Of a stretch of 64,000 nucleotides of DNA, positions 106 to 46,326 are shown in pieces (position 1 is the stretch's first letter; each line of letters begins with the position of its first letter). A program made the translations under genes and the position numbers. Origin of the DNA: Alphaproteobacteria bacterium (GTDB lineage Bacteria > Pseudomonadota > Alphaproteobacteria > CAAHEQ01 > UBA3637); assembly GCA_015062385.1 (NCBI GenBank), contig SUUT01000002.1, positions 465 through 64,464 of the forward strand. Reading direction: 5' to 3'. A model generated the notes under the pieces. The model was not told where the DNA came from and made no database searches. It worked only from the letters and a program-made list of their open reading frames with translations.

Positions 106-768
106 CTAATGATACTGACGCATTAATCCGACAAGTTGTCCTTGTATTTCAACTCTGTCTGCTTCAAAAAAACGGGTTTCATATTCTGAATTTTCAGGAA
201 TTAATGCAATTCGGTTTCCTTTAACCTGAATTCGTTTTAATGTCACTTCATAGCCGTCAACCAATGCTACGGCAATTGTTCCATTGGGGACTTGAACGGT
301 GCGTTTAATAATAACTGTATCTCCGTCCATAATGCCGACATCTTTCATAGAATCCCCCTCAACGGTTAAAGCATAATGTTCTCCGCTACCCATCATTTGA
401 GCCGGTACACAAACCGTATCCGGATTTCTCACTGCTTCAATTGGTGTTCCACAGGCAATTTTGCCGTATAATGGAATATCTAATGCGTTATCATTTGCAA
501 CATTTTTAAATATTTCAGTTGATTTTTTGGATTTTGAGGGTTTGAGATATTTTTCATTCGGCAATGTTAAAATTTCTAAAGCACGTGCTTTATTAGGTAA
601 TCGGCGGATAAATTTACGCTCTTCCAAGGCATTGATAAGCCGATGAATACCCGATTTTGAATGTAAGCCTAAATGTTCTTTCATTTCATCATATGATGGA
701 CAGATACCTTCTTTTAATAATGTTTCGTTAATAAATATTAACAGTTGATATTGTTTTTTTGTAAGCAT
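106..768 (-). CDS. lexA: LexA SOS repressor (S24 peptidase)
   Basis: N-terminal winged-helix region (SYDEMKEHLGLHSKSGIHRLINALEERKFI). C-terminal autopeptidase motifs are present: VEGDSMKD (Ser nucleophile) and VTLKRI (Lys). Confidence 0.9.
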   Translation of the reverse strand: MLTKKQYQLLIFINETLLKEGICPSYDEMKEHLGLHSKSGIHRLINALEERKFIRRLPNKARALEILTLPNEKYLKPSKSKKSTEIFKNVANDNALDIPLYGKIACGTPIEAVRNPDTVCVPAQMMGSGEHYALTVEGDSMKDVGIMDGDTVIIKRTVQVPNGTIAVALVDGYEVTLKRIQVKGNRIALIPENSEYETRFFEADRVEIQGQLVGLMRQYH

Positions 769-792
769 TGTTTCTCTCCTTATTTAATAAAA

Positions 793-807
793 ATTCTCCT
801 TTTGTTC
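793..807 (-). promoter_or_regulatory. Possible LexA operator (near match to the alphaproteobacterial GAAC-N7-GAAC box)
   Basis: The minus strand reads GAACaaaaggaGAAT between a TTGACA -35 (plus 834-839) and the lexA start, overlapping the RBS. It has one mismatch to the direct-repeat consensus. Confidence 0.3.
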
Positions 808-1054
808 TGTTTTTAACACGGAAAAACTTGATTGTCAATGCTTTTTTTATTTAAACAGATTATTTCTTATTCATTTGAATTTCCTTTTGTTTTTTGGTGG
901 TTTGGAAAAGATATGTGTTGTTTTCTCTTTTAGATTTTTTTTATTTGTTTTCTGTGTATTAATTTTTGTTAGCGATATAATTGCTGATATTCTATCTTGT
1001 TTTTAGAATAAATTTCTTAAATTATCCATTTGTCAACTGTTCGTATATGGTCAC

Positions 1055-1476
1055 ATTGAACCAACGGTTCTCGTCAAGGCTAACGCCTTTAATTTACAAA
1101 AAAACCTCCCCAAAAGGAGGCTTTTTGTGAATGGCTGGGATATCAGGATTGCTCGGACAAAAATGTCCTCGTCTTCGGAATATCTTCCTCAGACCGTCCT
1201 ACGGACGTCTACTCGCACAGGCTCGTGACCGACCAACGGTTCTCGTCAAGGCTAACGCCTTCAATTCACAAAAAAACTTCCCCAAAAGGAGGCTTTTTGT
1301 GAATGGCTGGGATACCAGGATTGCTCGGACAAAAATGTCCTCGTCTTCGGAATATCTTCCTCAGACCGTCCTACGGACGTCCACTCGCACAGGCTCGTGA
1401 CCGAACCAACGGTTCTCGTCAAGGCTAACGCCTTCAATTCACAAAAAAACCTCCCCAAAAGGAGGCTTTTTGTGAA
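1055..1476. repeat. Tandem array of ~172-173 bp units (one truncated plus two full) 3' of tRNA-Gln; each full unit carries a copy of the tRNA 3' end and a terminator hairpin
   Basis: Full units are 1132-1303 and 1304-1476, with a truncated unit at ~1055-1131. Each full unit starts with tggctgggata(t/c)cagga, the complement of the last 17-18 nt of the tRNA. Each ends with the A-run/cctcc-ggagg hairpin/T-run. Confidence 0.9.
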
Positions 1477-1550
1477 TGGCTGGGATACCAGGACTCGAAC
1501 CTAGACTGACGGAATCAGAATCCGCTGTCCTACCATTAGACGATATCCCA
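1477..1550 (-). tRNA. tRNA-Gln (anticodon CUG), CCA encoded
   Basis: The reverse complement folds as a cloverleaf: acceptor TGGGATA/TATCCCA, anticodon arm GCGGA-TTCTGAT-TCCGT, T arm CTAGG-TTCGAGT-CCTGG, 3' GCCA. Length is 74 nt. Confidence 0.9.
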
Positions 1551-1568: not shown

Positions 1569-1597
1569 AATATATCCTTCTTTTCTTTAAATTGCAA
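1569..1597 (-). promoter_or_regulatory. Sigma70-type promoter of tRNA-Gln
   Basis: The minus strand reads TTGCAA-17 nt-TATATT, ending ~18 nt upstream of the tRNA 5' end. Confidence 0.55.
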
Positions 1598-8771: not shown

Positions 8772-8921
8772 ATTCCCATCCTTTCAGTTAATTTTTTTGT
8801 ATAATACCCATTTTTTAAGATTTTGTCAAATATTTTTTAATAAAAATGTAGGTCTTTATAAGATTGATAAAGAATGATTTTTATTAATTGTTTTAAGTGG
8901 AATTCAGGATGTTTGTGCAGT

Positions 8922-9699
8922 TGGTTGCGGGGGTGGGATTTGGAAATTCCCAAAATGATGAACATTTTGGGTCCCTTTCAGCTCGTAGGGCTTACATGTC
9001 GCAAGCTCGTGTTTGCCAACTATCGCTTGAACCGTCACGACCTCCTTGTCGGTCGTGAGGTTAATCCCGACCCCCATAAATAAAAAAAACACCCTTTCGG
9101 GTGCCTTTTTAATTTTGGTTGCGGGGGTGGAATTTGTAAATTCCCAAAATGACAAGCATTTTGGGTCCCTTTCAGCCCGTAAGGCTCACACATCGCAAGC
9201 TCGTGTTTGCCAACTATCGCTTGAACCGTCACGACCTCCTTGTCGGTCGTGAGGTTAATCTCGACCCCCATAAATAAAAAAAACACCCTTTCGGGTGCCT
9301 TTTTAATTTTGGTTGCGGGGGTGGGATTTGGAAATTCCCAAAATGATGAACATTTTGGGTCCCTTTCAGCTCGTAAGGCTCACACGTCGCAAGCTCGTGT
9401 TTGCCAACTATCGCTTGAACCGTCACGACCTCCTTGTCGGTCGTGAGGTTAATCCCGACCCCCATAAATAAAAAAAAACACCCTTTCGGGTGTCTTTTTA
9501 ATTTTGGTTGCGGGGGTGGGATTTGGAAATTCCCAAAATGATGAACATTTTGGGTCCCTTTCAGCCCGTAAGGCTCACACGTCACAAGCTCGTGTTCGCC
9601 AACTATCGCTTGAACCGTCACGACCTCCTTGTCGGTCGTGAGGTTAATCCCGCCCCCCATAAATAAAAAAAAACACCCTTTCGGGTGCCTTTTTAATTT
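8922..9699. repeat. Four tandem 194-195 bp structured units 3' of the initiator tRNA; each contains tRNA-derived segments and a terminator
   Basis: Units are 8922-9115, 9116-9309, 9310-9504 and 9505-9699. Each begins with tggttgcgggggtgg(g/a)atttg, the complement of the tRNA's last 21 nt. Each contains hairpins cccaaaatg/cattttggg and cacgacc/ggtcgtg and a sense-orientation T-arm-like ggtcgtgaggttaatccc(g)accccc. Each ends with A8-9/caccc-tttc-gggtg/T-run. Confidence 0.95.
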
Positions 9700-9777
9700 T
9701 GGTTGCGGGGGTGGGATTTGAACCTCACGACCTCCAGGTTATGAGCCTGGCAAGCTACCGGACTGCTCTACCCCGCG
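9700..9777 (-). tRNA. Initiator-type tRNA-Met (anticodon CAU), CCA encoded
   Basis: The reverse complement is CGCGGGG...CTCATAA...CCCCGCAACCA. It has a C1:A72 mismatch and an A11:U24 pair, both initiator hallmarks. Length is 78 nt, with an apparent extra A in the 5' strand of the T stem (GTGAGG vs CCCAC). Confidence 0.8.
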
Positions 9778-9790
9778 ATAGAATAAACAT

Positions 9791-9819
9791 AATATATTCC
9801 CTTTTTTTGTACTTGTCAA
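9791..9819 (-). promoter_or_regulatory. Sigma70-type promoter of the initiator tRNA
   Basis: The minus strand reads TTGACA-17 nt-TATATT, ~13 nt upstream of the tRNA 5' end. Confidence 0.6.
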
Positions 9820-10885: not shown

Positions 10886-11512
10886 TTAGTTGTTTGTTCT
10901 GTTATTTTCCCGTAAGAAATCAGTTAAATTTAAATGATAAGAAGTTATCTGTTGCGGTGTGAATGGTGTGCTTTGTTCCGATATCTTTTTGAAGATTTCT
11001 TGTAAAAGATTAAATCTATTGAATGATGATGTTGTTGCTCTTGGATTTAATGAACAAAGAAATTTGTTTTCACCTGAAATTTGTACCAGATAGTGTTTGT
11101 CAAATATTATAAAAGACGGTATTTCTTTTCCTCCTTCTAAATCCAATAAACGAACGCTTGAAGCATAGGGTAATTCCGAGATTAACGGATGTGTTTCATT
11201 GAAATGTTCGTCTGTTTTAAACGGCATGGCTTGTGTCAGTTTTTCGTTGATTAAAACATCTTTTGTCACAATAAGAGACAAATTATTCATTTTTGTCGGC
11301 AAATATTTTTGAAAACATTCTAAATACGGATATATTTGGTCAAAATCGGCTTTGTTTAAAAACATTTTTACTTGATTACTTTGCTGTGTCAGTAAAAAAC
11401 ACATCAGTAATATACAGTTGTCATCGTATGAAATCGGAAATAGATCCTTATAATTTTGTTTAATGGCCTCTTGGTATGTTTTTATAATTTCGGTATCCTT
11501 CTTTGTTGACAT
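10886..11512 (-). CDS. Hypothetical protein, translationally coupled to the upstream Cys-rich gene
   Basis: The ATG lies 1 nt after the TAA of 11514..13520 (minus strand: ...AAATAATATGTCA). No recognisable motifs. Confidence 0.5.
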   Translation of the reverse strand: MSTKKDTEIIKTYQEAIKQNYKDLFPISYDDNCILLMCFLLTQQSNQVKMFLNKADFDQIYPYLECFQKYLPTKMNNLSLIVTKDVLINEKLTQAMPFKTDEHFNETHPLISELPYASSVRLLDLEGGKEIPSFIIFDKHYLVQISGENKFLCSLNPRATTSSFNRFNLLQEIFKKISEQSTPFTPQQITSYHLNLTDFLRENNRTNN

Positions 11513-11513
11513 A

Positions 11514-13520
11514 TTATTTTCTCACAGCTTTAAAAATACAAACGATAATGACGATTAATATTGTTAATGGGACAAGAATGATTAGTGCCGGCAGAATGAA
11601 AAAGCCAAAAAACATACTTGCCGAATATGAAAATTCAGACCACCATTTTTTTCTTTTTTGTGCCGAGATTTCTCGTTCAATGTTTCTTTTCCCGATTTTA
11701 GATGTTTCAACACCACTGAATTTAGTGTATGTTGCATCAATAACTGTTCTGTTAGGACATAATGTTGAAAGAGCATATCTATCATCAATCGGAATAATTG
11801 TTGGGTCATCGCAAGGGCGACATGTTCCTTTGAACGGAAATTGTCCTTTCGGGCAAGCACTGCATACGTCATCAATTAAATGCATATCCGGACACAGTGT
11901 TTCACAATCTGCCGGATTTAATGGATAGAAATATCCCATGTCATTTTTATTTTTGTGGAAATAAACATCTTGGTGCTGATAAAAACCACAGGATGTACAA
12001 ACGGGTTTTTTATACCATTTTTCAACAATCGGTTTGCTTGGTGTACATTTCGGTATAGAATAATCTGTTGCAATCATCCGAACGATTTGTCTGTTTTCAA
12101 ATTTATCTTGTGTTTCTTTATCTACCGGAACAGCTTTATCTGTTGTTACCGAATAACAGGTATAGTCCGTTGATTGTAAAGGTCTCTCAGCCGGGCATTC
12201 TTTTAATACGGAGTATGTTTTGTCGTCCATAGAAACAATTTGACGGTTTTCATATAAATTAGGCGTATTAGGAAGAACTTCAACGGGATGAATGTATGTT
12301 GCGGGTAGACAAAAACCTGAAATACTCATTAATGGCTTATCATCGGTACAATTCAAAACAGATTCATAACGGTACCCGTTTTTAATAATTTGACGATTAG
12401 GGAAAATATTTTTAGTATTTTTGTTGACTTCAATTTGTTGTGGTGTATCTGCGGGATAACAATCTCCGTCAACTGAACGTAACGGTTTATCTGGTGGACA
12501 TTTTAAATAAGAATAAATATAATCGTCATCTTTCACGATTTCTCGGTCGTTAAGTGTGTTGACGGCTGTTGGATGTAGCCATATCTTTTTTTCATCTGCC
12601 GAATGACATTTACCCCATTCATCCCTGATAGGTAATTCAGGCGGACATTTTAAAACAGAATAGTAATTTCTCCCGTATAAGAAAATAATTTCCCGATTGG
12701 GGAATCTGTTTTGCGTATGATCTTGTACTTGAACAAAATTTTCGGTGTCGGCAGAATGACATTTTTTTGTGTTGTCCATTAAGGGTTTGTCATCAGGACA
12801 TCTTAATGAAATATAATTTAAAGATGAATAATTACGAAACAAAGTTCTTGATGGACATGGATTTTCCTTATTTTCTACATATATTGTCTTGTTGCTGTCA
12901 CAAGCGAAACAATCAAATTTTTTGTTTTCAGCTAATTGACCGAAAATAGGTTTTTCAGGGGGACATATGAATTGAGATATTGTATTTCCATATTGATTAA
13001 CAGTATTTTTACGATAAGGACACACATCGGGGGATATATCGGGGGCTAATGTAATTTCTGCTGTTGTATTGCATGAATAACATTTTCCGAAATGAAGATC
13101 TCGTAACGGTTTTTCGGATGGACATTTGAGAGCCGAATAGAACATTTCATAATGTTGATAAATCGTTCTGTTCGGGCAGGGATTTATATAATCTTTTGAA
13201 ACAAATATATTTTTTTCATCATCACAATGATAACAAGTATCTTCATGATTTCTTATTGGTTTTTCAGAGGGACATTTTTTTAAAACAGTACCCCATCCGC
13301 TGCCGAAACTCACTTTTTTACGATTAGGACAAACAGTTAATACATCTACGTTGGGTTCATTACAGTTCAAGCATTGGAAAGCATAAATAATTTCGGGAGT
13401 ATCACAGGGCATACAACCTGTTAATGAAGGAATGGGTTTATCCTTTGGACAAGCAGACAAAGCCGGAACGGAAAAAATAAGTCCGGATAAAAGTGATAAG
13501 AAACTGATTTTAAAAAACAT
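11514..13520 (-). CDS. Cysteine-rich repeat surface protein with signal peptide and C-terminal membrane anchor
   Basis: Signal peptide MFFKISFLSLLSGLIFSVPALSA. About 11 units of ~50 aa follow, of the form CP(x)(E/D)KP(I/L)...C..(C/A)D...(C)PNR.I....Y..LK. C-terminal TM helix FFGFFILPALIILVPLTILIVIIVCIF. Confidence 0.8.
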   Translation of the reverse strand: MFFKISFLSLLSGLIFSVPALSACPKDKPIPSLTGCMPCDTPEIIYAFQCLNCNEPNVDVLTVCPNRKKVSFGSGWGTVLKKCPSEKPIRNHEDTCYHCDDEKNIFVSKDYINPCPNRTIYQHYEMFYSALKCPSEKPLRDLHFGKCYSCNTTAEITLAPDISPDVCPYRKNTVNQYGNTISQFICPPEKPIFGQLAENKKFDCFACDSNKTIYVENKENPCPSRTLFRNYSSLNYISLRCPDDKPLMDNTKKCHSADTENFVQVQDHTQNRFPNREIIFLYGRNYYSVLKCPPELPIRDEWGKCHSADEKKIWLHPTAVNTLNDREIVKDDDYIYSYLKCPPDKPLRSVDGDCYPADTPQQIEVNKNTKNIFPNRQIIKNGYRYESVLNCTDDKPLMSISGFCLPATYIHPVEVLPNTPNLYENRQIVSMDDKTYSVLKECPAERPLQSTDYTCYSVTTDKAVPVDKETQDKFENRQIVRMIATDYSIPKCTPSKPIVEKWYKKPVCTSCGFYQHQDVYFHKNKNDMGYFYPLNPADCETLCPDMHLIDDVCSACPKGQFPFKGTCRPCDDPTIIPIDDRYALSTLCPNRTVIDATYTKFSGVETSKIGKRNIEREISAQKRKKWWSEFSYSASMFFGFFILPALIILVPLTILIVIIVCIFKAVRK

Positions 13521-15493: not shown

Positions 15494-18400
15494 TTATTCA
15501 TTTTGATTATCTTGATTGTGTTGCTGTTGTTTTAATCTGAGATAGAAATCGGATATCGAACCGGAGTTTCTTTTTTTATAATCTTCATACATTTTTTTAG
15601 TTATTATGTCTGTTTTATAATAGTCAAAAACAGGCAAGACATTGTTTTTATAAATTAATCTCAAATGTTTTAAAAATTTAAGGTAGTTCGGATTTGTTTT
15701 GATTTCCTTTTGTTGTCCTAAATCGTTTAACATCTGATAAAATTCATTTTCTCGAATGATAAAGGAATCAGCACCTTTTACTTTCTTTTCAAATAGAACT
15801 TCATCATCGGTTATGGTAATTTTGTACCATGTTCTGCCGGATTTTGCAATGATTTGATTGTCTTGACAAAGCGTTGCCGGAATGGAAAAGTTTTCCTGTG
15901 CCGGAATTTTAGTTTTATCACAGTATTTATTCATGTACATCATTTGCTGTGCATAATAGTGATAAACGTCTTGAATGGATGGGTATGAAGAGGCTGCTTG
16001 TGGATATAAGTTATCGCTATTTACAAAATCAGTGTAAATTTTTATTAATTTTTGTCCTAATTCAGTGGCTTGATCTTCATTTTTCAGCCATTCATTTAAC
16101 ATATTCAAGATGTATTTAGGCGGTAAAATTGTTTTTGTTTTTAACAGTAAATCTTGAACAACAAATTTTGGACGTTTCTCATCTAATGAGATTTGATAAA
16201 CAAATTTTCCTCTTTTTTCATATAATACATTATCGGCACACAAAACGGGTGGTATATCAAAAGATATAATATCTTCTCCTTGAAAATAGTTGGGTTTGCC
16301 CATTTTTATTTGTTGATGTCTTAAATATGTTTTATATAAATAATTAAAGTGGGGTTTTTGCTCGCTTTCAATGTAGAAATTATCCGTTAAAAATACTCCT
16401 CGGATTTCAGAACATATTTCGGGGCGAATTGTATCTGATATTGTTCCTGTATAAAGCAATCTCGGTGTTTCAAATTTAATAGGGGATAAAATATCATTTA
16501 ATATTTCTATTGAATCGATATCATCTTCTTCATTGTTTTGTTGTATAATCGGAAGAATTCGGTTGTGTTTTCTTCCCCAAGAAGCAATCCTAACCACCGG
16601 TTGTCTTTTGCTGGCTGTTGTTTGAATGGGCGTTGTTGGTATAGGTTGTTGAACCGTTTTTTCGGTTTGAACAATTGTTTCTTCTTGTTGAATAATAGGT
16701 TTTTCGGATACAGCATCAGGCTGATTAATCGGAATATCTTCTTTATGTACAATGGATTCTTGCATTGGAACAGACTGTTCTTCGGATGAATCAAGAGCGA
16801 CTTTAACAGGAGTTGTCAATTCATCATTTGAAATAATCGGATTTTTAACCGGAAGATCTTCTTTTCTTTGCAAGTCCGTTGTTTTTTCTGTTATTTGTAT
16901 TAATTCTGATGTATGTTGAGTGGTTGTATCAAAAATCAACGGTAAATTTAAAGTTGTTAATTGCATTAAATAATATTCATCATAAGATTGTTCTAAATCA
17001 GATAAAATATCATTTAATTCAGTACGGGACATCGATTCAATCGTATTGTTGTATAGTTTTTCAAAAGTGATCGTGCTTGACAAATCAATTTTGTAGTATA
17101 TACCATTTTTACGGGCATAAATACAATTATCGCCACAATGAATTGCCGGTATATCAACAGTATTGTTTTTGCCTGTTAGAATTTGAGAAAATAAAGGTAA
17201 TTCACTATATACAGGCGGAACATTTTTGTGAATAAATTCATTGAGTAATTTAACGGATTTTGATTCATAATAAGGTGATGGTTTAAACAATTTTGATTTT
17301 TGCGGACGAGCTTTTCCGATATAGGTATGCGTTCTGTAAAAGGCATTTTTTAATGTACTGATATTTATCTTTTTCAAATATCTATATATTTGATTTTTGG
17401 CAACATCCTGTAATATCCGATGAAATTCTTCTGCCGTCATATCTCGAATAACGCCGTTTTCCAAAACATCAAATGTCGGTGTTTCGGAGATGGTTATTCG
17501 GTAATAATTATTGTTATATTTTGCACAGAGCAAATTACCACTGCAAATATGTGTAATAATATCTTCTTCGGGTTCTATATGTTGTAATTGTGCTGATAAT
17601 TTTTGTTCTTCTTCAATTTGCTCAAAACGAGGGAATGTATAAATCGGATTTTTACGATTGTTTTTCTTTGCAAAAAATCCTTTGTATAAATTGGGTAATA
17701 TTCGTAATATTTTTTGACTTAATTCCGGATATGGTTTTAATGCTTCCGTTAAAATAGTTTTGACGTCTTCATACGGAATATGCCGTTGCTGTTTATTTAA
17801 AATATTACGAACGGAAAAGAATACATCACCGGAACGCAATGAAATAATATAATGATAAATCCCTTTTTTATAGTGAATCCGGTCGTCATTTGCCCAAACA
17901 GCCGGCATATCAAACGCATGATTTTCTTCATCTTTTAAATCAGGATTGTTGTTTTGAATAGCTCGTTTTAATGTTTCAATCCGAATTTGAGCATCAAAAT
18001 TAAAAGAATTCAGATTGTATTGATAGAATTCTGCTACTGCTGAATGACTGATATGTGTTGGGAATAAAGCCTTTTTTAATTCCTCAATATCATCATTTTC
18101 AAACATTTTGGGTTGATATTCGTACGGATTAAAATCATTTTTTTGTAATTCGCTCAAAATTTGGCGACTGCGTGTTTCCCGATTGGGTACTGTATAAGGT
18201 GTGGGTAAAATAATGTTTTCTGCTGTCCGGTTGAATTGTTCGGCAAAAAGAGACTGTTCCTTAAATGCTTTTTTTAAGTGTCTCATACTGATTTTATGTT
18301 GTATTTTACGTTCGTAAATGCCATTTAAAATCAGGTTAAATTCGTCTGCTGTTATTGAGCGGATTTGATTGTTTTCCAATGCTTCAAACGTTATCGGTTC

Positions 18401-21400
18401 TTTTATTTTGATTTTGTAATAAATTTGATTGTATCGGGCATAAATGATATTTCCGGCACATAAGCAGGGTAAAATAGTATCAGTTGGGATAGTCCCGTTT
18501 AATTGTGCCGTTAAATTGTCAAATTCTATTATCTGATCAAACCGGGGATAATCGGATTTTTGTGTTTTATATCGTTCGGGGCTAATCTGATATTTTTGAT
18601 ATAATTTATTCAGCATTTCAGATATTAGGCGGGTATCCGGATTATTTGCATCAAAATTATCGGTAATAAGTGTATTTAAATTTTCCACTTGGAAAAGAAT
18701 GGCTGTACCTGTTGCTTTTTTAAATTTAGAAAATGTCACATTTTTTTCATCTAACGAAAAAACATAATGATATTGATTGTCTAATGCATGTACTTTTCCA
18801 TCACTGCATAAAGTAGGGGGTAATATAATTTCATTTTCATCTTTTTGTGCAATTTTTTGCTTTAAAATCAAACTTTTTTGCAAAGTTAAAAAATCAGGAA
18901 AAGCAAATTCATCTTCAAAAAACGGTGTTGTTTCCTGCACGATATTTGTATCGTTTTTTGCTGTGTTTTTTATTGGGTTTAACGAACCGAAGATATTTTC
19001 GGTTTCATGTGTGCCTGCCTGTATTCCTGTTTCTTCGGATAATTGAACAATGTATTGTTGGATAGACGTTTGTTCTTGCTGATTGCTTACGAATGAATTA
19101 TTTGTTGCCGTATTGTCATACAAAACATTCAGAGGACGTTTATTTAGACCTAAATTATTTAATTTATAGCTTTTTATTGAGCGGAATAAATCGTTTATGA
19201 TTTTGTTTAATTCTGATTTTGTCATTCGCCGAATAATTCCGTTTTCCCAAGCTTCAAATACAGGGGATTCTTTATAGCGAAGTTTATAGAAAACATTATT
19301 GTATCGAGCCAAAATGGTGTTGTTTTCACATAAAACAGGCAAAATATCGCTTTGGGTATCTTGATTATTGAGTTCCAGTTGTTTTTCGGCTAATAAGAGA
19401 GCTTGTTTTAAAGATGGTTGTAAATGTTTGCTTTCCGGAGAAATAAAGTGTTGCGACATATAAGCTGTTGCAAATCGTGCCAATACAGTGTGTCCTGTTT
19501 CGATGTCGTTTTTAAAGATATCTAATACTGTTTTTTTTATAATAAACGGTGACATAATTCTATATGCTCTTGTTTTGATATCTTTTTCCAAAAATGAAGG
19601 GCGTTTTAAGTCTAAAGAAATATAGTACAGTTTTCGACCGTCTTTCCAATGTAAAAAATTATCCGGTGTAATAATCGGTTCATAAGAATATAATTGATTT
19701 TTTTCATCAAACAAATTAGGATTATGTGTTTCAATCGCATGCGTTAATGATTGAATTTGTTGATGATAGTAGGGATTGATTTGTAAAGTGTTTTCTTCTA
19801 AAAATGAATTTAAATTAAGAGATGAACCATAATTTATCGTTATTTTCGATTGTTGTTCAGTTAAAATTTCTTGTCGATTTTGAGCGGGAAAGCGTGTTTC
19901 AAATTCATATTCAAGGGAATGCTTGTTATTAAAATCAAGCAATTCAATAATTGGTGTATATTGAATTGATTCCGGAATTGTAAACACTGGTGTTTGTTGT
20001 TTGTTAATTTGTTGGAAATACTTGCTCTTTAACCCGTTTGCTTTTGTTTCTTGTAAAACCGGTTGATGATAAGTTCCTAATAATTCCTGATTGATTTTTT
20101 GAATTTCATCGGCATTCATCGGACGGATTTGACCGTTTTGTAATGCGGTAAATGTGAGGGTGGGGGATAATGTTATTTTGTATAAAACATTTCCTTTTTT
20201 TGCAATAATAATATTACCGGCACAAATGGTTGCCGAAATATCTGATAATTTTTCAGATGTTTGATTCAAATAATTAAATACTAAAACTTGTTTTGCCGTA
20301 GGCCAAGAACGCTTGTTGTTTCTGGCTCGAACTGATTGTGTCGTAAGTGATTTATACGCTTTTTGAAATTGCCGGATAATACTTTTTTTGTTTGATACAT
20401 TTGGAACAATGGTATTTAAAACTGTTTCAAAATCTGCAACAGGTATTTTTTTATTTGTACCATCTGCTACTTCTACTCGGTAATAAGGCATATTTAAGTC
20501 AAGGGAAATAATATATTTTTTTCCGTTTGCCGATGTATATAAGCAGTCATTTTGAGCAATATATGTTGTATTTATCGGTTGATAAATCTTTGTTGCGAGA
20601 TGGTGTTTTAAAGCTGTCTGTTCAATTTTTTCCTGATAACGGTTATCCGGTCGCAATTTGATGCTTTCTTGCCAAAAAGCGAGTGCTTGTCGAATTTCAT
20701 CTTCCTGTGTTTGTGGTGCAGAATATTGAATCGTACTTTCTGCTATTGTTTGGTGGGTTAAAGACGGAATTGTTTCTTCTTTTGAATGCGTAACCATTGA
20801 GTCTGTTAAAGCTGATTTAATAATTTGTTCAGATGAAGGTGTGGTTGCTTTATTGGTTTCAGAAGAGACTGTTTGTAATGGTACGGTTTTTAAAGCTGCG
20901 TGCAAATCGTTTGCAAAAGATAATGTTTGTTGGTTTGTTTGTTCTTGTTGCTCAAAAAATTTCTGTTGGGGGGATACGGTCTTTCCGTATCGTTCCAAAA
21001 GGGCATTTGCACCTGCTTTCATTAAATAAACGGCATTATATCGTTCGCTTAAATACCGACTGATAAATCGGACTTCATTTAATGTCATTTGACGGATTTT
21101 TCCATCTTGGTAAACACCGTATGACGGGGCTCCGTCTAATGTGATTTTATAAAAGGCATTTCCGTATTTTGCCATAATAATTTGATTAGCACAAATAATC
21201 GGATTGATATTTTGCAAAACTGTTTTTTCGGCAAGTAAACTTTGGTATTTTGCCGTTTCGATTACTTGTTGAACGGAAGGAAGTTGTTTTGCCTCTCGTT
21301 TTCTTTTATGCTTAATTTTGGAATAATATAATTTCTCAAAAAATTGTATGTATTTTTGGCACAGATGTGAATCCGGTATTACTTTTGTCAGAATTTGTTG

Positions 21401-23887
21401 AACTTCCACCCATTTAAGTGTTTGTTCGGTTCTGTTTTCCGTTTTCTTAATAAAAAACGGATGATCTTCATCTAATGAAAAAATATACGTTGTGTTGTTT
21501 TCTTTGTAGTAAAGACGATTCCTGCGGTCAATAATCGGATTTCTTATTTTAACAGAACCGGCATTTTCCGGGTATTTTTGTGCGTATTCGGTTTTTAGTT
21601 GATTAAGTTCATCTTCAGCTTTAAAGGAGGGTAAAATAAAATTCGGACCGAAAAAGAAATCTGCCGTTTCAAGTTCTGTTGTCATTGGTACTGTTGAATC
21701 GGGTGTTTCAAGTAAATTTGTTACTTTTATATATGGTCCTCTTGTGGATTTCGGTTGCTGTTTGATTCGAATGGTTGGATTGATTTCTTCAAAAGAAATA
21801 ATTTTTTGAGCCAAAGAGTATTGTGAAATATCTGTTTGTTCGGGCAGGGCAGTTTCATCTGTGTGTTCGGCAGAGATTTGTTGATTTGATGCAAAAAATT
21901 TGTTCTTTAATGCTTCGGCATTCACTTCTGCCAATTGTGCATAATTATATTGTCTGCGTAAATCTTTTAAAAAGATTTTAAACTCATTAACCGTCATTGG
22001 AGCACGTTTTCCGTTTTTGTATGTTTCAAATCGGAATGGTTGTTTTGTTGATACTTTATAATAAACATCATCATATCGGGCCAAAAGGATATTTCCGGCA
22101 CAAATAACCGGTAAAATGTCGGTTATCGGATATTTTTTGAATAAATTGATATAATAATGACGTTCCAAAACCTGTTTAACAGACGGATATGTACTTTTTG
22201 AAACTTTTGTCGGCAGTGTGGATGTATGAACCCTTTGTAAAATGGCTAAAACCTGTTCTTGTGTTTCCGATGATTCCGATTGGATAAGCGGTAAAATTAC
22301 TTCTTTGATTTCAGCAAAAGAAAGTGTTCTTTGTTTGCCTGTTATATTATCCCGAATAAAAGAGGTACTTTGTCGGGGATTTAATGAAATGATAATTTGA
22401 TAATTATTTTTTTGAAAGCTAAGCAGTTGATTGCTGAATATGTTTACAGAATGATCAACAAAGAGTTTTGAGTTAACATCCTTGATGTTTTTAATGCCAT
22501 TTTTGAGAGCATTTTTATATCTGTTGATTTCTGAAAAGGTATAAAATTCAGGAAGTTGACCTTTTGCATTATAAAAATCCAATACGTCCGATGTGATGGC
22601 AGAGAGGTAATTTTGTTGTGGTAATTGGTCGGTTTGTTCATCTTTGTAAAGTGACATGAATTCTGAAATGGATGGTAAAACCGAACGATTATCTTCAATC
22701 GGTTGTTTTGTTTCTTGGCTGTCTGTTGTTTGATTCGTACTAACAAGTGGTGTGTGAATAACGGCAGGTTGAATTAAATCTTTTTGCTTGTTTTCATCTG
22801 ATTTTGTCTCGGATTTTGTCACCGAAGTTATGTTATTCGAACGCATGTTTATTTCTTGTTGCGTGTTTTCTTCTGTTACTTCAAGACCATCAGCTTTTTT
22901 AAATTGAATAAAAGGTACATAATTTGATGATTTTTTGCGAGGTCGTCTGACCGGATTTGAAATCAAATCTGTTGTTTCTTGGCTTTGCCATTTTCGGTAC
23001 TCATTGCTTTTTTCTTTTGTATAAGAAATTTCATCTGTTTTTGCATCTTCCGATAAAATGATAGGTTCTGTTTCAATTAAAACAACATCAGCCGATATGG
23101 GTTTGATCGTTTCTGATATTATTGTTTGAGTCTCTTCAATAGAGGCAGATACTTGCGGTTGTTGAGTTGTTTGGGGTGGTGTGTCTATATTTTCTTTTCC
23201 CTGTTGATCGGTTGATTTATTCTTTTTCTTTTTGGGGCCGATTAAATCAAGTGTTCCGACTTCTCGCCATTTTTTTAATTGATCCATCATTTCTTGTGAA
23301 GAACGATTATGTGTAAAATTATTGTGTTGCGTAAACGATGCGGGACGTGGAGCTTGTGTTTTTTCTTGTCCTTGTGCCGATGCCGGTAATTGTGTCGATT
23401 CTAACATTGGAGAATGCCGTAAAATCGGTTTTGTTTTTTTTGAATCAGGTTGTGTTTGGGATTCTTTATTTGTTTTTAAGGCATTTTTATCAGCCCTGAT
23501 TTCTTTTTTTACAACGCTTTGAAAATTAGGACTTTCACAAATAATTTGGCAGGCTTTTTCATAAATAAATGGGGCTTGATTGTTGTCGATTGCTGGTTTG
23601 TTTTTGTTGAATTCTCTAAAAAATTGCGGAAAGTAAGAGAGTTTATCTTCAATATCTTCATTCATACTACAATAATTGTTCATAATACTGAAAATATCTT
23701 GTTCCGTCATCGGTTCTATTTTTGTTGGGGTCAAAACAAAAAAGGCTGGATGAGATGTGCTGAAAATTATCCGAAAGAGGCGATTGTTTTGTTTTGCAAA
23801 CAAAAAAGTTCTTTTGCCTTTTTTATAAACAATCGGATCAAAAGCTTCTAAGTTCTCAATTTGTTGAATAGCTGACATTTCATTCAT
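15494..23887 (-). CDS. Giant repeat protein (2797 aa) built from an unrecognised ~55-aa domain
   Basis: There is one uninterrupted ORF of 8.4 kb. At least a dozen diverged copies of two alternating module types are present, for example ICAGNIIIAKKGNVLYKITLSPTLTFTALQNGQIRPMNADEIQKI and NGKKYIISLDLNMPYYRVEVADGTNKKIPVADFETVL. Q/T/S/P-rich linkers separate them, and there is no N-terminal signal peptide. Confidence 0.8.
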   Translation of the reverse strand: MNEMSAIQQIENLEAFDPIVYKKGKRTFLFAKQNNRLFRIIFSTSHPAFFVLTPTKIEPMTEQDIFSIMNNYCSMNEDIEDKLSYFPQFFREFNKNKPAIDNNQAPFIYEKACQIICESPNFQSVVKKEIRADKNALKTNKESQTQPDSKKTKPILRHSPMLESTQLPASAQGQEKTQAPRPASFTQHNNFTHNRSSQEMMDQLKKWREVGTLDLIGPKKKKNKSTDQQGKENIDTPPQTTQQPQVSASIEETQTIISETIKPISADVVLIETEPIILSEDAKTDEISYTKEKSNEYRKWQSQETTDLISNPVRRPRKKSSNYVPFIQFKKADGLEVTEENTQQEINMRSNNITSVTKSETKSDENKQKDLIQPAVIHTPLVSTNQTTDSQETKQPIEDNRSVLPSISEFMSLYKDEQTDQLPQQNYLSAITSDVLDFYNAKGQLPEFYTFSEINRYKNALKNGIKNIKDVNSKLFVDHSVNIFSNQLLSFQKNNYQIIISLNPRQSTSFIRDNITGKQRTLSFAEIKEVILPLIQSESSETQEQVLAILQRVHTSTLPTKVSKSTYPSVKQVLERHYYINLFKKYPITDILPVICAGNILLARYDDVYYKVSTKQPFRFETYKNGKRAPMTVNEFKIFLKDLRRQYNYAQLAEVNAEALKNKFFASNQQISAEHTDETALPEQTDISQYSLAQKIISFEEINPTIRIKQQPKSTRGPYIKVTNLLETPDSTVPMTTELETADFFFGPNFILPSFKAEDELNQLKTEYAQKYPENAGSVKIRNPIIDRRNRLYYKENNTTYIFSLDEDHPFFIKKTENRTEQTLKWVEVQQILTKVIPDSHLCQKYIQFFEKLYYSKIKHKRKREAKQLPSVQQVIETAKYQSLLAEKTVLQNINPIICANQIIMAKYGNAFYKITLDGAPSYGVYQDGKIRQMTLNEVRFISRYLSERYNAVYLMKAGANALLERYGKTVSPQQKFFEQQEQTNQQTLSFANDLHAALKTVPLQTVSSETNKATTPSSEQIIKSALTDSMVTHSKEETIPSLTHQTIAESTIQYSAPQTQEDEIRQALAFWQESIKLRPDNRYQEKIEQTALKHHLATKIYQPINTTYIAQNDCLYTSANGKKYIISLDLNMPYYRVEVADGTNKKIPVADFETVLNTIVPNVSNKKSIIRQFQKAYKSLTTQSVRARNNKRSWPTAKQVLVFNYLNQTSEKLSDISATICAGNIIIAKKGNVLYKITLSPTLTFTALQNGQIRPMNADEIQKINQELLGTYHQPVLQETKANGLKSKYFQQINKQQTPVFTIPESIQYTPIIELLDFNNKHSLEYEFETRFPAQNRQEILTEQQSKITINYGSSLNLNSFLEENTLQINPYYHQQIQSLTHAIETHNPNLFDEKNQLYSYEPIITPDNFLHWKDGRKLYYISLDLKRPSFLEKDIKTRAYRIMSPFIIKKTVLDIFKNDIETGHTVLARFATAYMSQHFISPESKHLQPSLKQALLLAEKQLELNNQDTQSDILPVLCENNTILARYNNVFYKLRYKESPVFEAWENGIIRRMTKSELNKIINDLFRSIKSYKLNNLGLNKRPLNVLYDNTATNNSFVSNQQEQTSIQQYIVQLSEETGIQAGTHETENIFGSLNPIKNTAKNDTNIVQETTPFFEDEFAFPDFLTLQKSLILKQKIAQKDENEIILPPTLCSDGKVHALDNQYHYVFSLDEKNVTFSKFKKATGTAILFQVENLNTLITDNFDANNPDTRLISEMLNKLYQKYQISPERYKTQKSDYPRFDQIIEFDNLTAQLNGTIPTDTILPCLCAGNIIYARYNQIYYKIKIKEPITFEALENNQIRSITADEFNLILNGIYERKIQHKISMRHLKKAFKEQSLFAEQFNRTAENIILPTPYTVPNRETRSRQILSELQKNDFNPYEYQPKMFENDDIEELKKALFPTHISHSAVAEFYQYNLNSFNFDAQIRIETLKRAIQNNNPDLKDEENHAFDMPAVWANDDRIHYKKGIYHYIISLRSGDVFFSVRNILNKQQRHIPYEDVKTILTEALKPYPELSQKILRILPNLYKGFFAKKNNRKNPIYTFPRFEQIEEEQKLSAQLQHIEPEEDIITHICSGNLLCAKYNNNYYRITISETPTFDVLENGVIRDMTAEEFHRILQDVAKNQIYRYLKKINISTLKNAFYRTHTYIGKARPQKSKLFKPSPYYESKSVKLLNEFIHKNVPPVYSELPLFSQILTGKNNTVDIPAIHCGDNCIYARKNGIYYKIDLSSTITFEKLYNNTIESMSRTELNDILSDLEQSYDEYYLMQLTTLNLPLIFDTTTQHTSELIQITEKTTDLQRKEDLPVKNPIISNDELTTPVKVALDSSEEQSVPMQESIVHKEDIPINQPDAVSEKPIIQQEETIVQTEKTVQQPIPTTPIQTTASKRQPVVRIASWGRKHNRILPIIQQNNEEDDIDSIEILNDILSPIKFETPRLLYTGTISDTIRPEICSEIRGVFLTDNFYIESEQKPHFNYLYKTYLRHQQIKMGKPNYFQGEDIISFDIPPVLCADNVLYEKRGKFVYQISLDEKRPKFVVQDLLLKTKTILPPKYILNMLNEWLKNEDQATELGQKLIKIYTDFVNSDNLYPQAASSYPSIQDVYHYYAQQMMYMNKYCDKTKIPAQENFSIPATLCQDNQIIAKSGRTWYKITITDDEVLFEKKVKGADSFIIRENEFYQMLNDLGQQKEIKTNPNYLKFLKHLRLIYKNNVLPVFDYYKTDIITKKMYEDYKKRNSGSISDFYLRLKQQQHNQDNQNE

Positions 23888-30951: not shown

Positions 30952-32043
<1,092 letters not shown>

Positions 32044-46250: not shown

Positions 46251-46326
46251 TGGTGCCTGGGGACGGAATCGAACCGCCGACACAGGGATTTTCAGTCCCT
46301 TGCTCTACCAACTGAGCTACCCAGGC
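46251..46326 (-). tRNA. tRNA-Phe (anticodon GAA), CCA encoded
   Basis: The reverse complement is GCCTGGGTAGCTCAGTTGGTAGAGCAAGGGACTGAAAATCCCTGTGTCGGCGGTTCGATTCCGTCCCCAGGCACCA. A terminator hairpin gcctcg/cgagac with a T-run follows on the minus strand. No tandem units are present here. Confidence 0.92.

Follow-up and report, generated by a model that had tools for sequence, protein, structure and literature searches.

The window analysed here, 64,000 nt of alphaproteobacterial DNA (positions 465 to 64,464 of contig SUUT01000002.1, GenBank assembly GCA_015062385.1), carries an initiator tRNA gene followed directly by four tandem repeats of about 194 bp, and the question raised by this locus is what such repeats are and how they came to lie behind a tRNA gene. 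In a preliminary description they were taken either for a miniature integrative element without an integrase, akin to a cis-mobilizable element (CIME), or for an array of tRNA-derived structured RNAs. The four units were recovered with Tandem Repeats Finder (TRF) and BLAST and the tRNA with ARAGORN and Rfam, and sequence comparison and alignment bore out all six parts listed for a unit, including the complement of the final 21 nt of the tRNA, both hairpins, the inverted repeat and the terminator. The units belong to an architectural class in which a terminator, an antisense copy of the T-arm, a sense copy of the T-stem 5' strand with the T-loop start (T5'), a hairpin body and a sense copy reaching from the T-loop to CCA (T3') follow one another. 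Neither of the two earlier answers had anticipated a general class occurring at many tRNA genes, with ends matched to the tRNA and a body placed inside a split T-loop copy after an antisense T-arm. The units are tentatively interpreted here as non-autonomous cassettes that recombine at the T-loop/3' end of tRNA genes, are amplified in tandem and function in single-stranded form.

Anatomy and fold of the units

With its 5' C opposite A72, the tRNA-Met(CAT) is of the initiator type. Read in the sense of this tRNA (minus strand), every Met unit contains the same terminator that follows the tRNA gene itself, scoring on both strands, and continues with an antisense copy of the T-arm and acceptor 3' strand (aT), a short loop, T5', the hairpin body and T3' (Table 1). 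From this order of parts, a unit is a partial copy of the tRNA, from about position 44 to position 76, whose T-loop is split by the body and which has its own antisense in front. On the plus strand, aT of unit 3 reads ggtcgtgaggttaatcccgaccccc, compared with ggtcgtgaggttcaaatcccaccccc in the tRNA. Hairpin H1 arises where the antisense copy of the T-stem 5' region pairs with the sense copy, and the 3' half of the tRNA, the terminator and the antisense copy together make up one long palindrome.

The hairpin body of the Met unit amounts to about 85 nt in all. In unit 3 it contains a CAAGC/GCUUG stem with tandem G.A pairs, a mini hairpin GUU-GGCA-AAC and the motif GTTGG..CACGAGC. The stem of the 9-bp hairpin is retained and its loop altered both in unit 2 and in a relative (locus L176, positions 1-50). 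The G+C content of the window is about 35%, and the units appear markedly richer.

In the minimum free energy (MFE) fold of the Met unit (-68.2 kcal/mol), the antisense segment pairs with both T5' and T3'. The resulting rod imitates the T-arm duplex of the tRNA gene, and the body leaves it at the T-loop. Against shuffled sequences the fold gave z = -6.6 on the sense strand and -4.6 on the opposite strand. The real tRNA has the promoter-like sequence TTGACA-17-TATATT, as had been described, and the units have no good promoter, the sole match being a weak one (9/12) in unit 2.

Table 1. Coordinates of the arrays, their parts and associated features (positions refer to the window unless a locus is named; R1 and the core hidden Markov model (HMM) are models of related units introduced below)
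Feature	Position	Strand	Basis
tRNA-Met(CAT), initiator type (C1xA72), 78 nt	9700..9777	-	ARAGORN; Rfam RF00005, 58.2 bits
Promoter-like TTGACA-17-TATATT, upstream of tRNA-Met	9791..9819	-	11/12 matches
Met array, four tandem units	8922..9699	-	TRF, BLAST, alignment
Unit 4, closest to tRNA-Met, 195 bp	9505..9699	-	BLAST, 97.4% identity with unit 3
Unit 3, 195 bp, representative for the parts	9310..9504	-	Sequence, BLAST, fold
Unit 2, 194 bp, most diverged: loop of 9-bp hairpin altered, T3' copy CAAATTCC	9116..9309	-	Alignment, BLAST
Unit 1, distal, 194 bp	8922..9115	-	Alignment, BLAST
Unit 3, bidirectional intrinsic terminator: A-run, GGCACCC/GGGTG stem, T-run	9472..9499	.	Both strands score
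Unit 3, antisense copy (aT), tRNA positions ~47-71	9439..9463	-	Sequence; pairs with unit 3' end in MFE fold
Unit 3, hairpin H1, cacgacc/ggtcgtg	9424..9445	-	Sequence, fold
Unit 3, sense copy (T5'): variable loop, T-stem 5' strand, T-loop start, GGAGGTCGTGACGGTTCA	9416..9433	-	Comparison with tRNA
Unit 3, body	9360..9417	-	Fold; no match with model R1 or core HMM
Unit 3, 9-bp hairpin CCCAAAAUG/CAUUUUGGG	9337..9359	-	Alignment
Unit 3, sense copy (T3'), tRNA positions 56-76, CAAATCCCACCCCCGCAACCA	9310..9330	-	Sequence, alignment
tRNA-Gln(CTG)	1477..1550	-	ARAGORN, Rfam
Promoter-like TTGCAA-17-TATATT of tRNA-Gln	1569-1597	-	Promoter scan
Gln array: 172-bp units 1305-1476 and 1133-1304, 75-bp partial 1058-1132	1058..1476	-	TRF, sequence
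One-gene cassettes in related loci	L024 486-1240; L141 1195, 2254; L140 686; L149 3003; L151 6269; L157 9951; L160 281		
VirB4/TrbE-like gene, a few kb downstream of tRNA-fMet	L024 5316-7736; L059 4888-7305; L155 7625-10045		

Two arrays in one window

The 21-nt block running from the T-loop to CCA occurs in five copies, one in each of the four Met units and one at the 3' end of tRNA-Met. A single Met array was reported by TRF (8921-9720, period 194, 4.1 copies, 95% matches, score 1474), and its copies are 94.9-100% identical (BLAST, unit 3 as query). At the distal border, the 3'-end copy of unit 1 adjoins an unrelated flank without a terminator, the sequence past 8921 being unrelated.

The preliminary description stopped at this array and missed a second one behind tRNA-Gln (TRF: period 172, 2.5 copies, 96%). 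The Gln unit has the same order of parts as the Met unit and is made from the T-arm and last 17 nt of tRNA-Gln, with the antisense T-arm CCTTGACGAGAACC followed by the sense T5' copy GTTGGTTCG. In units of both arrays the terminator lies right after CCA, the antisense copy precedes T5', and the end is an exact T-loop-to-CCA block. This block sets the repeat boundary, with 21 nt for Met and 17 nt for Gln and for the tRNA-Lys unit of a relative described below; the Met array measures n units plus one block and the Gln array n units plus a longer terminal block. The motif GTTGG-N(4-6)-CACGAGC is common to Met and Gln units, and all six of its occurrences in the window fall in the two arrays (0.01 expected). 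The third tRNA gene of the window, tRNA-Phe(GAA) (46251-46326, same strand), is followed by a terminator only, so not every tRNA of this genome carries a unit. The partial distal Gln copy ends exactly after GGTTC, at the junction of T5' and body.

Three JGI contigs from different samples carry this set of four Met units, each with its own substitutions unchanged, and have unique sequence on both sides; because they reproduce the array independently, it is not an assembly artefact. One MEGAHIT contig holds two Met units and 1.4 Gln units, which reflects either true copy-number variation or repeat collapse, and many other contigs stop within the Met array.

With ARAGORN and Rfam, only the three true tRNAs were called, and RF00005 was found inside no unit even at E<=10. 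At the gathering score, Rfam 15 gave no family on the window or on 38 related loci beyond tRNA, rRNA and unrelated families, and permissive Rfam scans of the window arrays and one canonical unit returned chance-level matches only. Hammerhead and other self-cleaving ribozymes were rejected as candidates, since CUGA/GAAA-like strings are present without any model match.

A conserved core in related units

Units of gut and rumen Alphaproteobacteria have in common a core that lies after GGTTCA. Its base is a 5-bp stem, P, which reads GCGAA/UGAGC with tandem G.A pairs or is fully Watson-Crick. Inside P lie hairpin H2 (tandem G.A, GNRA loop), then GGU and a variable hairpin H3; P is followed by GCAGNGG and a variable hairpin H4. 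Searching for this tRNA-independent pattern identified 32 loci in metagenomes, where the units stand behind tRNA-Met, Pro(GGG), Pro(CGG) or Gly(GCC). In viral contigs it gave no match. At the 32 loci all three tRNA-derived segments (antisense, T5' and T3') agree with the tRNA that the unit follows.

Covariation was measured on a MAFFT alignment of 21 units, with slid pairing partners as the control. The four helices were 88.2% paired, as against 27-39% with slid partners; 15 of 23 pairs vary on both sides, and the covariation score was 0.445 compared with about 0.06. An alignment of 46 hits gave the same statistics; over the slid controls as a whole, the paired share was 27-46%. The non-canonical cells are mainly G.A (45), and G.T (11) exceeds A.C (5), which, together with the G.A pairs on the sense strand, points to the tRNA-sense strand as the one that is folded. 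On this strand the hairpins end in GNRA tetraloops (GGAA, GUGA, GCAA) and purine-rich loops.

A covariance model, R1, was derived from the 21-unit alignment, with helices H1, P, H2 (GNRA) and H3 in register after GGTTCA. With it, tRNA-Ala(CGC) and tRNA-Lys joined the tRNAs that have a unit behind them, and arrays with as many as three or four units came to light; the scores were 55-105 bits on the Lys unit (locus L008) and 60 or more other units. The Lys unit belongs to a relative with a 71%-identical Prs, in which tRNA-Lys(CTT) is followed by a terminator, a unit of about 176 nt and a copy of the last 17 nt of the tRNA (11400-11651, then a scaffold gap; R1 score 55 bits). It was met by chance in a synteny walk from Prs to relatives, in which gene order was not conserved. 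Arrays or units are found behind tRNA-Met and tRNA-Gln in the window and behind tRNA-Met, Pro, Gly, Ala and Lys in relatives.

The same layout in other bacteria

One genome per species was scanned for two initiator-tRNA ends lying 172-202 nt apart, a spacing that was imposed by the search pattern and is therefore uninformative on size preference. At least 120 loci were obtained, about half of them ordinary tandem tRNA genes. Among the matches listed, 73 of 120 loci have units without a tRNA behind tRNA-fMet, 86 in all; they represent Alphaproteobacteria, Acidobacteriota, Clostridia, Saccharibacteria, Gracilibacteria, Spirochaetia, Margulisbacteria and further groups. Insolitispirillum peregrinum (locus L080) is an isolate with such units. 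An inverted T-arm copy just past the terminator beats all shuffles in 22 of the 42 evaluable units. Other units are plain duplications of the tRNA 3' half, of the type left by integrases that act in the anticodon loop.

Window-type units occur at the same place in two related species, whose downstream 268-aa protein is 78-80% identical. In one of them (L174, 1-130) the body and 3' copy of the last unit have decayed towards A+T and the antisense/H1/T5' part is 100% kept, a pattern that fits conversion by the tRNA gene. The window-type body had no close relatives among all fetched loci, and a plasmid search with two units gave no match.

In Rhizobiales and an acidobacterium (L055 579-758, L068 126-317, L118 5592-6221 and L031 86-269), what follows tRNA-fMet is a near full-length pseudo-tRNA; it has no antisense T-arm but a hairpin inserted into its T-loop. 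Locus L044, from an unclassified bacterial metagenome-assembled genome (MAG; bin BP9.bin16), has a unit resembling those of Saccharibacteria and, unrelated to it, a group I intron (689-885, minus strand; Rfam, 71.8 bits).

Mosaic units and a variable hot spot

Where one contig carries units at two different tRNAs, their H4 hairpins are almost identical, whereas H2, H3 and all tRNA-matched segments differ. Moreover, one Pro(CGG) unit bears the H4 of a Met unit from another genome.

Seven loci have the upstream genes LpxC, LpxK and DUF374 in common and differ in what follows tRNA-fMet: conserved-core units, a second unit type and one-gene cassettes (GNAT acetyltransferases and others; Table 1). 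The cassettes are bounded by the last 8 nt of the tRNA. Most of them end in a motif of about 30 nt, GGCTCGAGAACTGCACAC(ACTG/CGAG)CACAACCA, followed by a terminator, and several continue with CCAATACCTACAAAAAGTT, extended to ...CGAAAG in L024, L141 and L143. The genes found downstream in other species are likewise variable and accessory-looking. A VirB4/TrbE-like type IV secretion gene at three loci suggests that a conjugative element has integrated at tRNA-fMet in some relatives.

Distal 3'-end copies are often imperfect, with CAAAAC for CAAATCC or CTTTGGCCA for CGCAACCA, or are truncated, and the antisense copy still matches the true tRNA. Such degeneration fits what is expected of displaced tRNA ends.

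The second unit type, which has a body with a long AAATTTGTA/TACAAATTT stem, takes the same position (L078 7656-7852, L095 3129-3320, L059 825-1013). Parts of it were seen in L132, L144, L156 and L160, and in mixed arrays it is found joined to conserved-core units.

A proposed cassette recombining at the tRNA 3' end

The T-loop-to-CCA block is the classic identity block of integrases that cross over in or after the T-loop. A gene-less cassette might enter by recombination within this block of the tRNA gene, using an enzyme supplied in trans, most simply a tyrosine integrase encoded by an element with the same tRNA target. The cassette would give the tRNA a new functional 3' end and a terminator, and the former 3' end would be displaced to the far border; such a displacement is consistent with the lengths of the arrays, the hot-spot setting and the degenerate copies at distal ends. 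Further insertions, or unequal exchange between 3'-end blocks, could produce extra copies, and gene conversion against the adjacent tRNA may keep the tRNA-derived segments matched.

The active form would be a strand-specific fold, either of single-stranded DNA (ssDNA) serving as a recombination substrate, as in integron attC and CTX-phage attP sites, or of a transcript. The covariation in the relatives is strand-specific, which shows that a single-stranded form is under selection there. By analogy, a fold that mimics the target and carries the body at the putative point of exchange would parallel attC and CTX attP. In this scheme an enzyme, a strand exchange and a single-stranded intermediate are presumed.

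Several results weigh against this interpretation. No integrase, transposase or reverse transcriptase was found beside the units or among the tested window open reading frames (ORFs), and no integrase domain in the gene calls of L001, a locus with public annotation, or in the scanned window ORFs. Pfam searches of 40 neighbouring or window ORFs gave housekeeping and accessory genes, the sole integrase lying in a separate 3.6-kb element of L087. No empty site was seen among 23+23 contigs, and neither an excised circle, a transcript nor a full-length parent element was seen. Contigs reached via the downstream 268-aa protein, which break inside the array, showed no empty site and no other copy number. 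The attP of a classical integrase is double-stranded, so covarying hairpins, GNRA loops and tandem G.A would not be expected of it and fit an RNA at least equally well. A simple crossover in the T-loop would, moreover, leave the match of the antisense and T5' segments to each new tRNA unexplained, and the imposed spacing of the genome scan lends no support to a preferred size.

The window copies themselves also give pause. In the preliminary description, the substitutions between copies were held to fall in loops or to improve pairing. This is weakly true: of 16 variable columns, eight lie within the 132 paired and eight within the 63 unpaired positions, and among the changes two yield G.U, four disrupt pairs and none is compensatory. 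Covariation, proposed there as a check, is strong in the core-family relatives and is not seen among the four copies. With all filters off, R1 gave no match on the window arrays at E<=10, and an HMM restricted to the core gave none either. A whole-unit HMM (nhmmer) did match the window units (E~2e-7), yet membership of the window bodies in the core family was rejected, as this score is driven by the terminator and the tRNA-derived parts. By eye, the window units keep CAAGCGAUAG, a P-like stem with tandem G.A (CAAGCGA/CGAGCUUG) and the mini hairpin GUU-GGCA-AAC; they have GCGACGU after the stem, as does the Lys unit, and a GCGA/CGAGC motif. They therefore share the layout and not a demonstrable core homology, and the covariation evidence is borrowed from relatives that have only this layout and short motifs in common with them.

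Of the CIME-like answer, the T-loop-to-CCA repeats, the n + 1 block arithmetic, the variable hot spot and the degenerate distal ends have stood; an integrase and an empty site were looked for in vain in the contigs and ORFs named above.

Other explanations

Each unit could instead be a gene for a structured noncoding RNA of about 150 nt, transcribed by read-through from the strong promoter of the tRNA or rRNA operon and trimmed by tRNA-maturation enzymes. The trimming is suggested by the paired ends and the 3' GCAACCA/NCCA tail, which imitate an acceptor/T-arm minihelix; the arrays would then be ordinary tandem duplications, and the RNA could act as a decoy or regulator tied to its cognate tRNA. 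Four covarying helices, GNRA tetraloops, tandem sheared G.A and purine-rich loops, all on the tRNA-sense strand, speak for such an RNA in the relatives, as does the fold of the Met unit, far better than that of shuffles and better on the sense strand. GNRA-type loops and tandem G.A are, however, stable in ssDNA too.

The units always have the orientation of the tRNA, lie directly past its terminator and are followed by another terminator, and their neighbours are housekeeping genes. In several Alphaproteobacteria tRNA-fMet is the last gene of an rRNA operon, where read-through is plausible. Nevertheless, a strong terminator (a G+C-rich stem of about 6 bp and 8-9 T) stands before every unit and no unit has its own promoter, so later copies of an array would barely be transcribed. 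The retargeting of three segments to seven tRNAs and the mosaic sharing of sub-hairpins would not easily result from mere duplication, a close relative shows decay of the last unit, and units are intermixed with gene cassettes bounded by the same tRNA end. The second earlier answer, the structured RNA, gains support from the folds of the relatives, while the terminators and missing promoters count against it; we regard the RNA gene as the main rival, somewhat less probable than the cassette. It and the recombining cassette are not mutually exclusive.

The units might also be non-functional by-products of replication errors at the hairpin of a highly transcribed tRNA terminator. Template switching there would leave a direct-inverted-direct copy of the tRNA 3' part, which slippage or unequal crossing-over would then amplify. 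The long palindrome centred on the terminator, with H1 as a second palindrome after it, is what such errors might leave, and the non-compensatory changes within the array and the AT-biased decay in one relative would fit. The conserved core of the relatives, with its strong covariation across genera and tRNAs, would not; nor would the recurrence of the layout in several phyla or the sharing of sub-hairpins between units at different tRNAs of one genome. This origin is quite improbable.

A unit RNA that mediates its own spread is more improbable still. The tRNA-matched segments would be guides or primers for an enzyme acting in trans that copies the cassette into the T-loop, by RNA-guided recombination or by target-primed reverse transcription at a T-loop nick. 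A conserved core with tRNA-specific ends resembles the logic of a guide RNA, and the segment order may be compatible with T-loop-primed synthesis, but the matched segments pair together rather than lying in open loops, none of the loci showed a reverse transcriptase or an RNA-guided recombinase, and we know of no precedent in bacteria.

Finally, an assembly artefact, to which the frequent mishandling of repeats in short-read metagenome assemblies, the two-unit MEGAHIT contig and the contigs ending inside the array might have pointed, is excluded for practical purposes by the three independent JGI contigs.

Comparison with known systems

No description of such units was found in the literature searched, which does not prove that none exists. 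The only related remark in one paper (Weinberg 2017, PMC5737381) concerned GOLLD and ROOL RNAs, which are much larger and lie near tRNAs. The closest known systems are CIME-type elements in tandem accretion, integron cassettes with clusters of attC sites lacking an integron integrase (CALINs), and att sites that fold as single strands. The size of the units, their origin from the adjacent tRNA in both orientations and the split T-loop design set them apart from all of these.

CIMEs and their tandem accretion at tRNA att sites are known, for example, from ICESt1/CIME of Streptococcus thermophilus. The units resemble them in having no integrase inside, in being bordered by direct repeats of the tRNA 3' end, in lying in tandem at a tRNA and in the flanking hot spot for integrative elements; no Pfam match was obtained for ORFs within the repeats. 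In contrast to CIMEs, they are gene-less and only 172-195 bp long, carry an antisense T-arm copy and a body in a split T-loop, show hairpin covariation in relatives, and have no parent integrative and conjugative element or integrase identified.

In CTX phage, attP is made up of two partial target copies in opposite orientation, separated by about 100 nt, that can fold into a target-like duplex, and tandem arrays are typical of it. Here too, inverted partial target copies in tandem arrays would fold into a duplex copy of the chromosomal site, as judged from the MFE fold and the logic of the sequence. The units differ from CTX in being directed at a tRNA T-arm rather than dif and in carrying no phage genes, and Xer involvement is no part of the likeness.

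Like integrons and CALINs, the arrays combine short, structured, site-like units with one-gene cassettes, conserve structure more than sequence and have a strand-specific fold, and such arrays can occur without a nearby integrase. Unlike them, the units are bounded by tRNA 3' ends, have a branched fold rather than an R/L-box rod and are anchored on a tRNA instead of attI/intI. An identity with integron cassettes, attC sites or CALINs was rejected, as the ends are ...GCAACCA/...CAGCCA and not GTTRRRY and no integrase domain was found in L001 or the scanned ORFs, no attC-specific model having been run.

With transfer-messenger RNA (tmRNA), mascRNA and viral tRNA-like structures, the units share a 3' end made of the acceptor 3' strand and CCA that is paired with a 5' segment, and with 3' external transcribed spacer RNAs their position in the 3' trailer of a tRNA gene. 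They differ in having neither a tRNA-derived acceptor 5' strand nor an intact T-arm, in the intervening terminator and in the absence of any tRNA or tmRNA call. REPIN and BIME palindromes are likewise short non-coding units that lie in tandem near terminators and fold as single strands, but REPINs are dispersed in hundreds of copies and are not derived from a neighbouring gene, whereas the units occur only behind tRNA genes and copy them.

Three further candidates were rejected. A miniature inverted-repeat transposable element would have inverted ends, as the units do (antisense versus T3'), but the copies lie only behind tRNAs and no short duplication is evident. Type III toxin-antitoxin arrays have repeats of about 36 nt and a toxin gene, compared with a period of 194 or 172 nt and a 268-aa protein and LexA downstream. 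The analogy with bridge RNAs and omega RNAs fails as the tRNA-matched segments pair together and so are not exposed as loops, and neither IS110 nor TnpB genes were seen.

Wider implications

The 3' ends of tRNA genes are the main landing pads of genomic islands, and remnants found there are usually dismissed as att-site debris. Here such debris shows a recurrent, ordered design whose ends have been re-fitted to at least seven tRNAs. A bolder proposal, which we hold to be unlikely as it stands, is that the units represent widespread, undescribed, programmable mobile elements directed at the tRNA T-loop, with a structured core of RNA or folded ssDNA and exchangeable T-arm copies in both orientations. 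The segments would then direct insertion beside any tRNA gene without destroying it, in an integron-like or guide-like system anchored on tRNAs.

Should the units be recombination substrates, they would carry the folded-single-strand principle known from integrons and CTX phage over to tRNA sites and would account for tandem accretion. If they are RNAs, they would form a new tRNA-linked class expressed from some of the strongest promoters of the cell. In either case they bring about systematic contig breaks in metagenome assemblies and spurious ORF calls.

ORFs of 143 aa (9229-9660, minus strand) and 83 aa (8904-9155, minus strand) traverse the Met repeats, and the former is called as a gene in the public annotation of L001, together with another array-internal ORF. 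Since none of the repeat-internal ORFs has a Pfam match, they are probably spurious.

Neighbouring genes

The arrays lie among genes for LexA, alanine racemase, RmuC, AspRS, Prs, ATP synthase and an RNase E/G-like protein. Homologues of Prs are labelled as coming from alphaproteobacterial MAGs. Downstream of the arrays are the 268-aa protein of no recognised function, which has its own promoter, and LexA. Elsewhere in the window, a 2797-aa ORF (15494-23887, minus strand) has no Pfam family on record, and an N6/N4 DNA methylase with a C-terminal RAMA domain is encoded at 30955-32043 on the plus strand.

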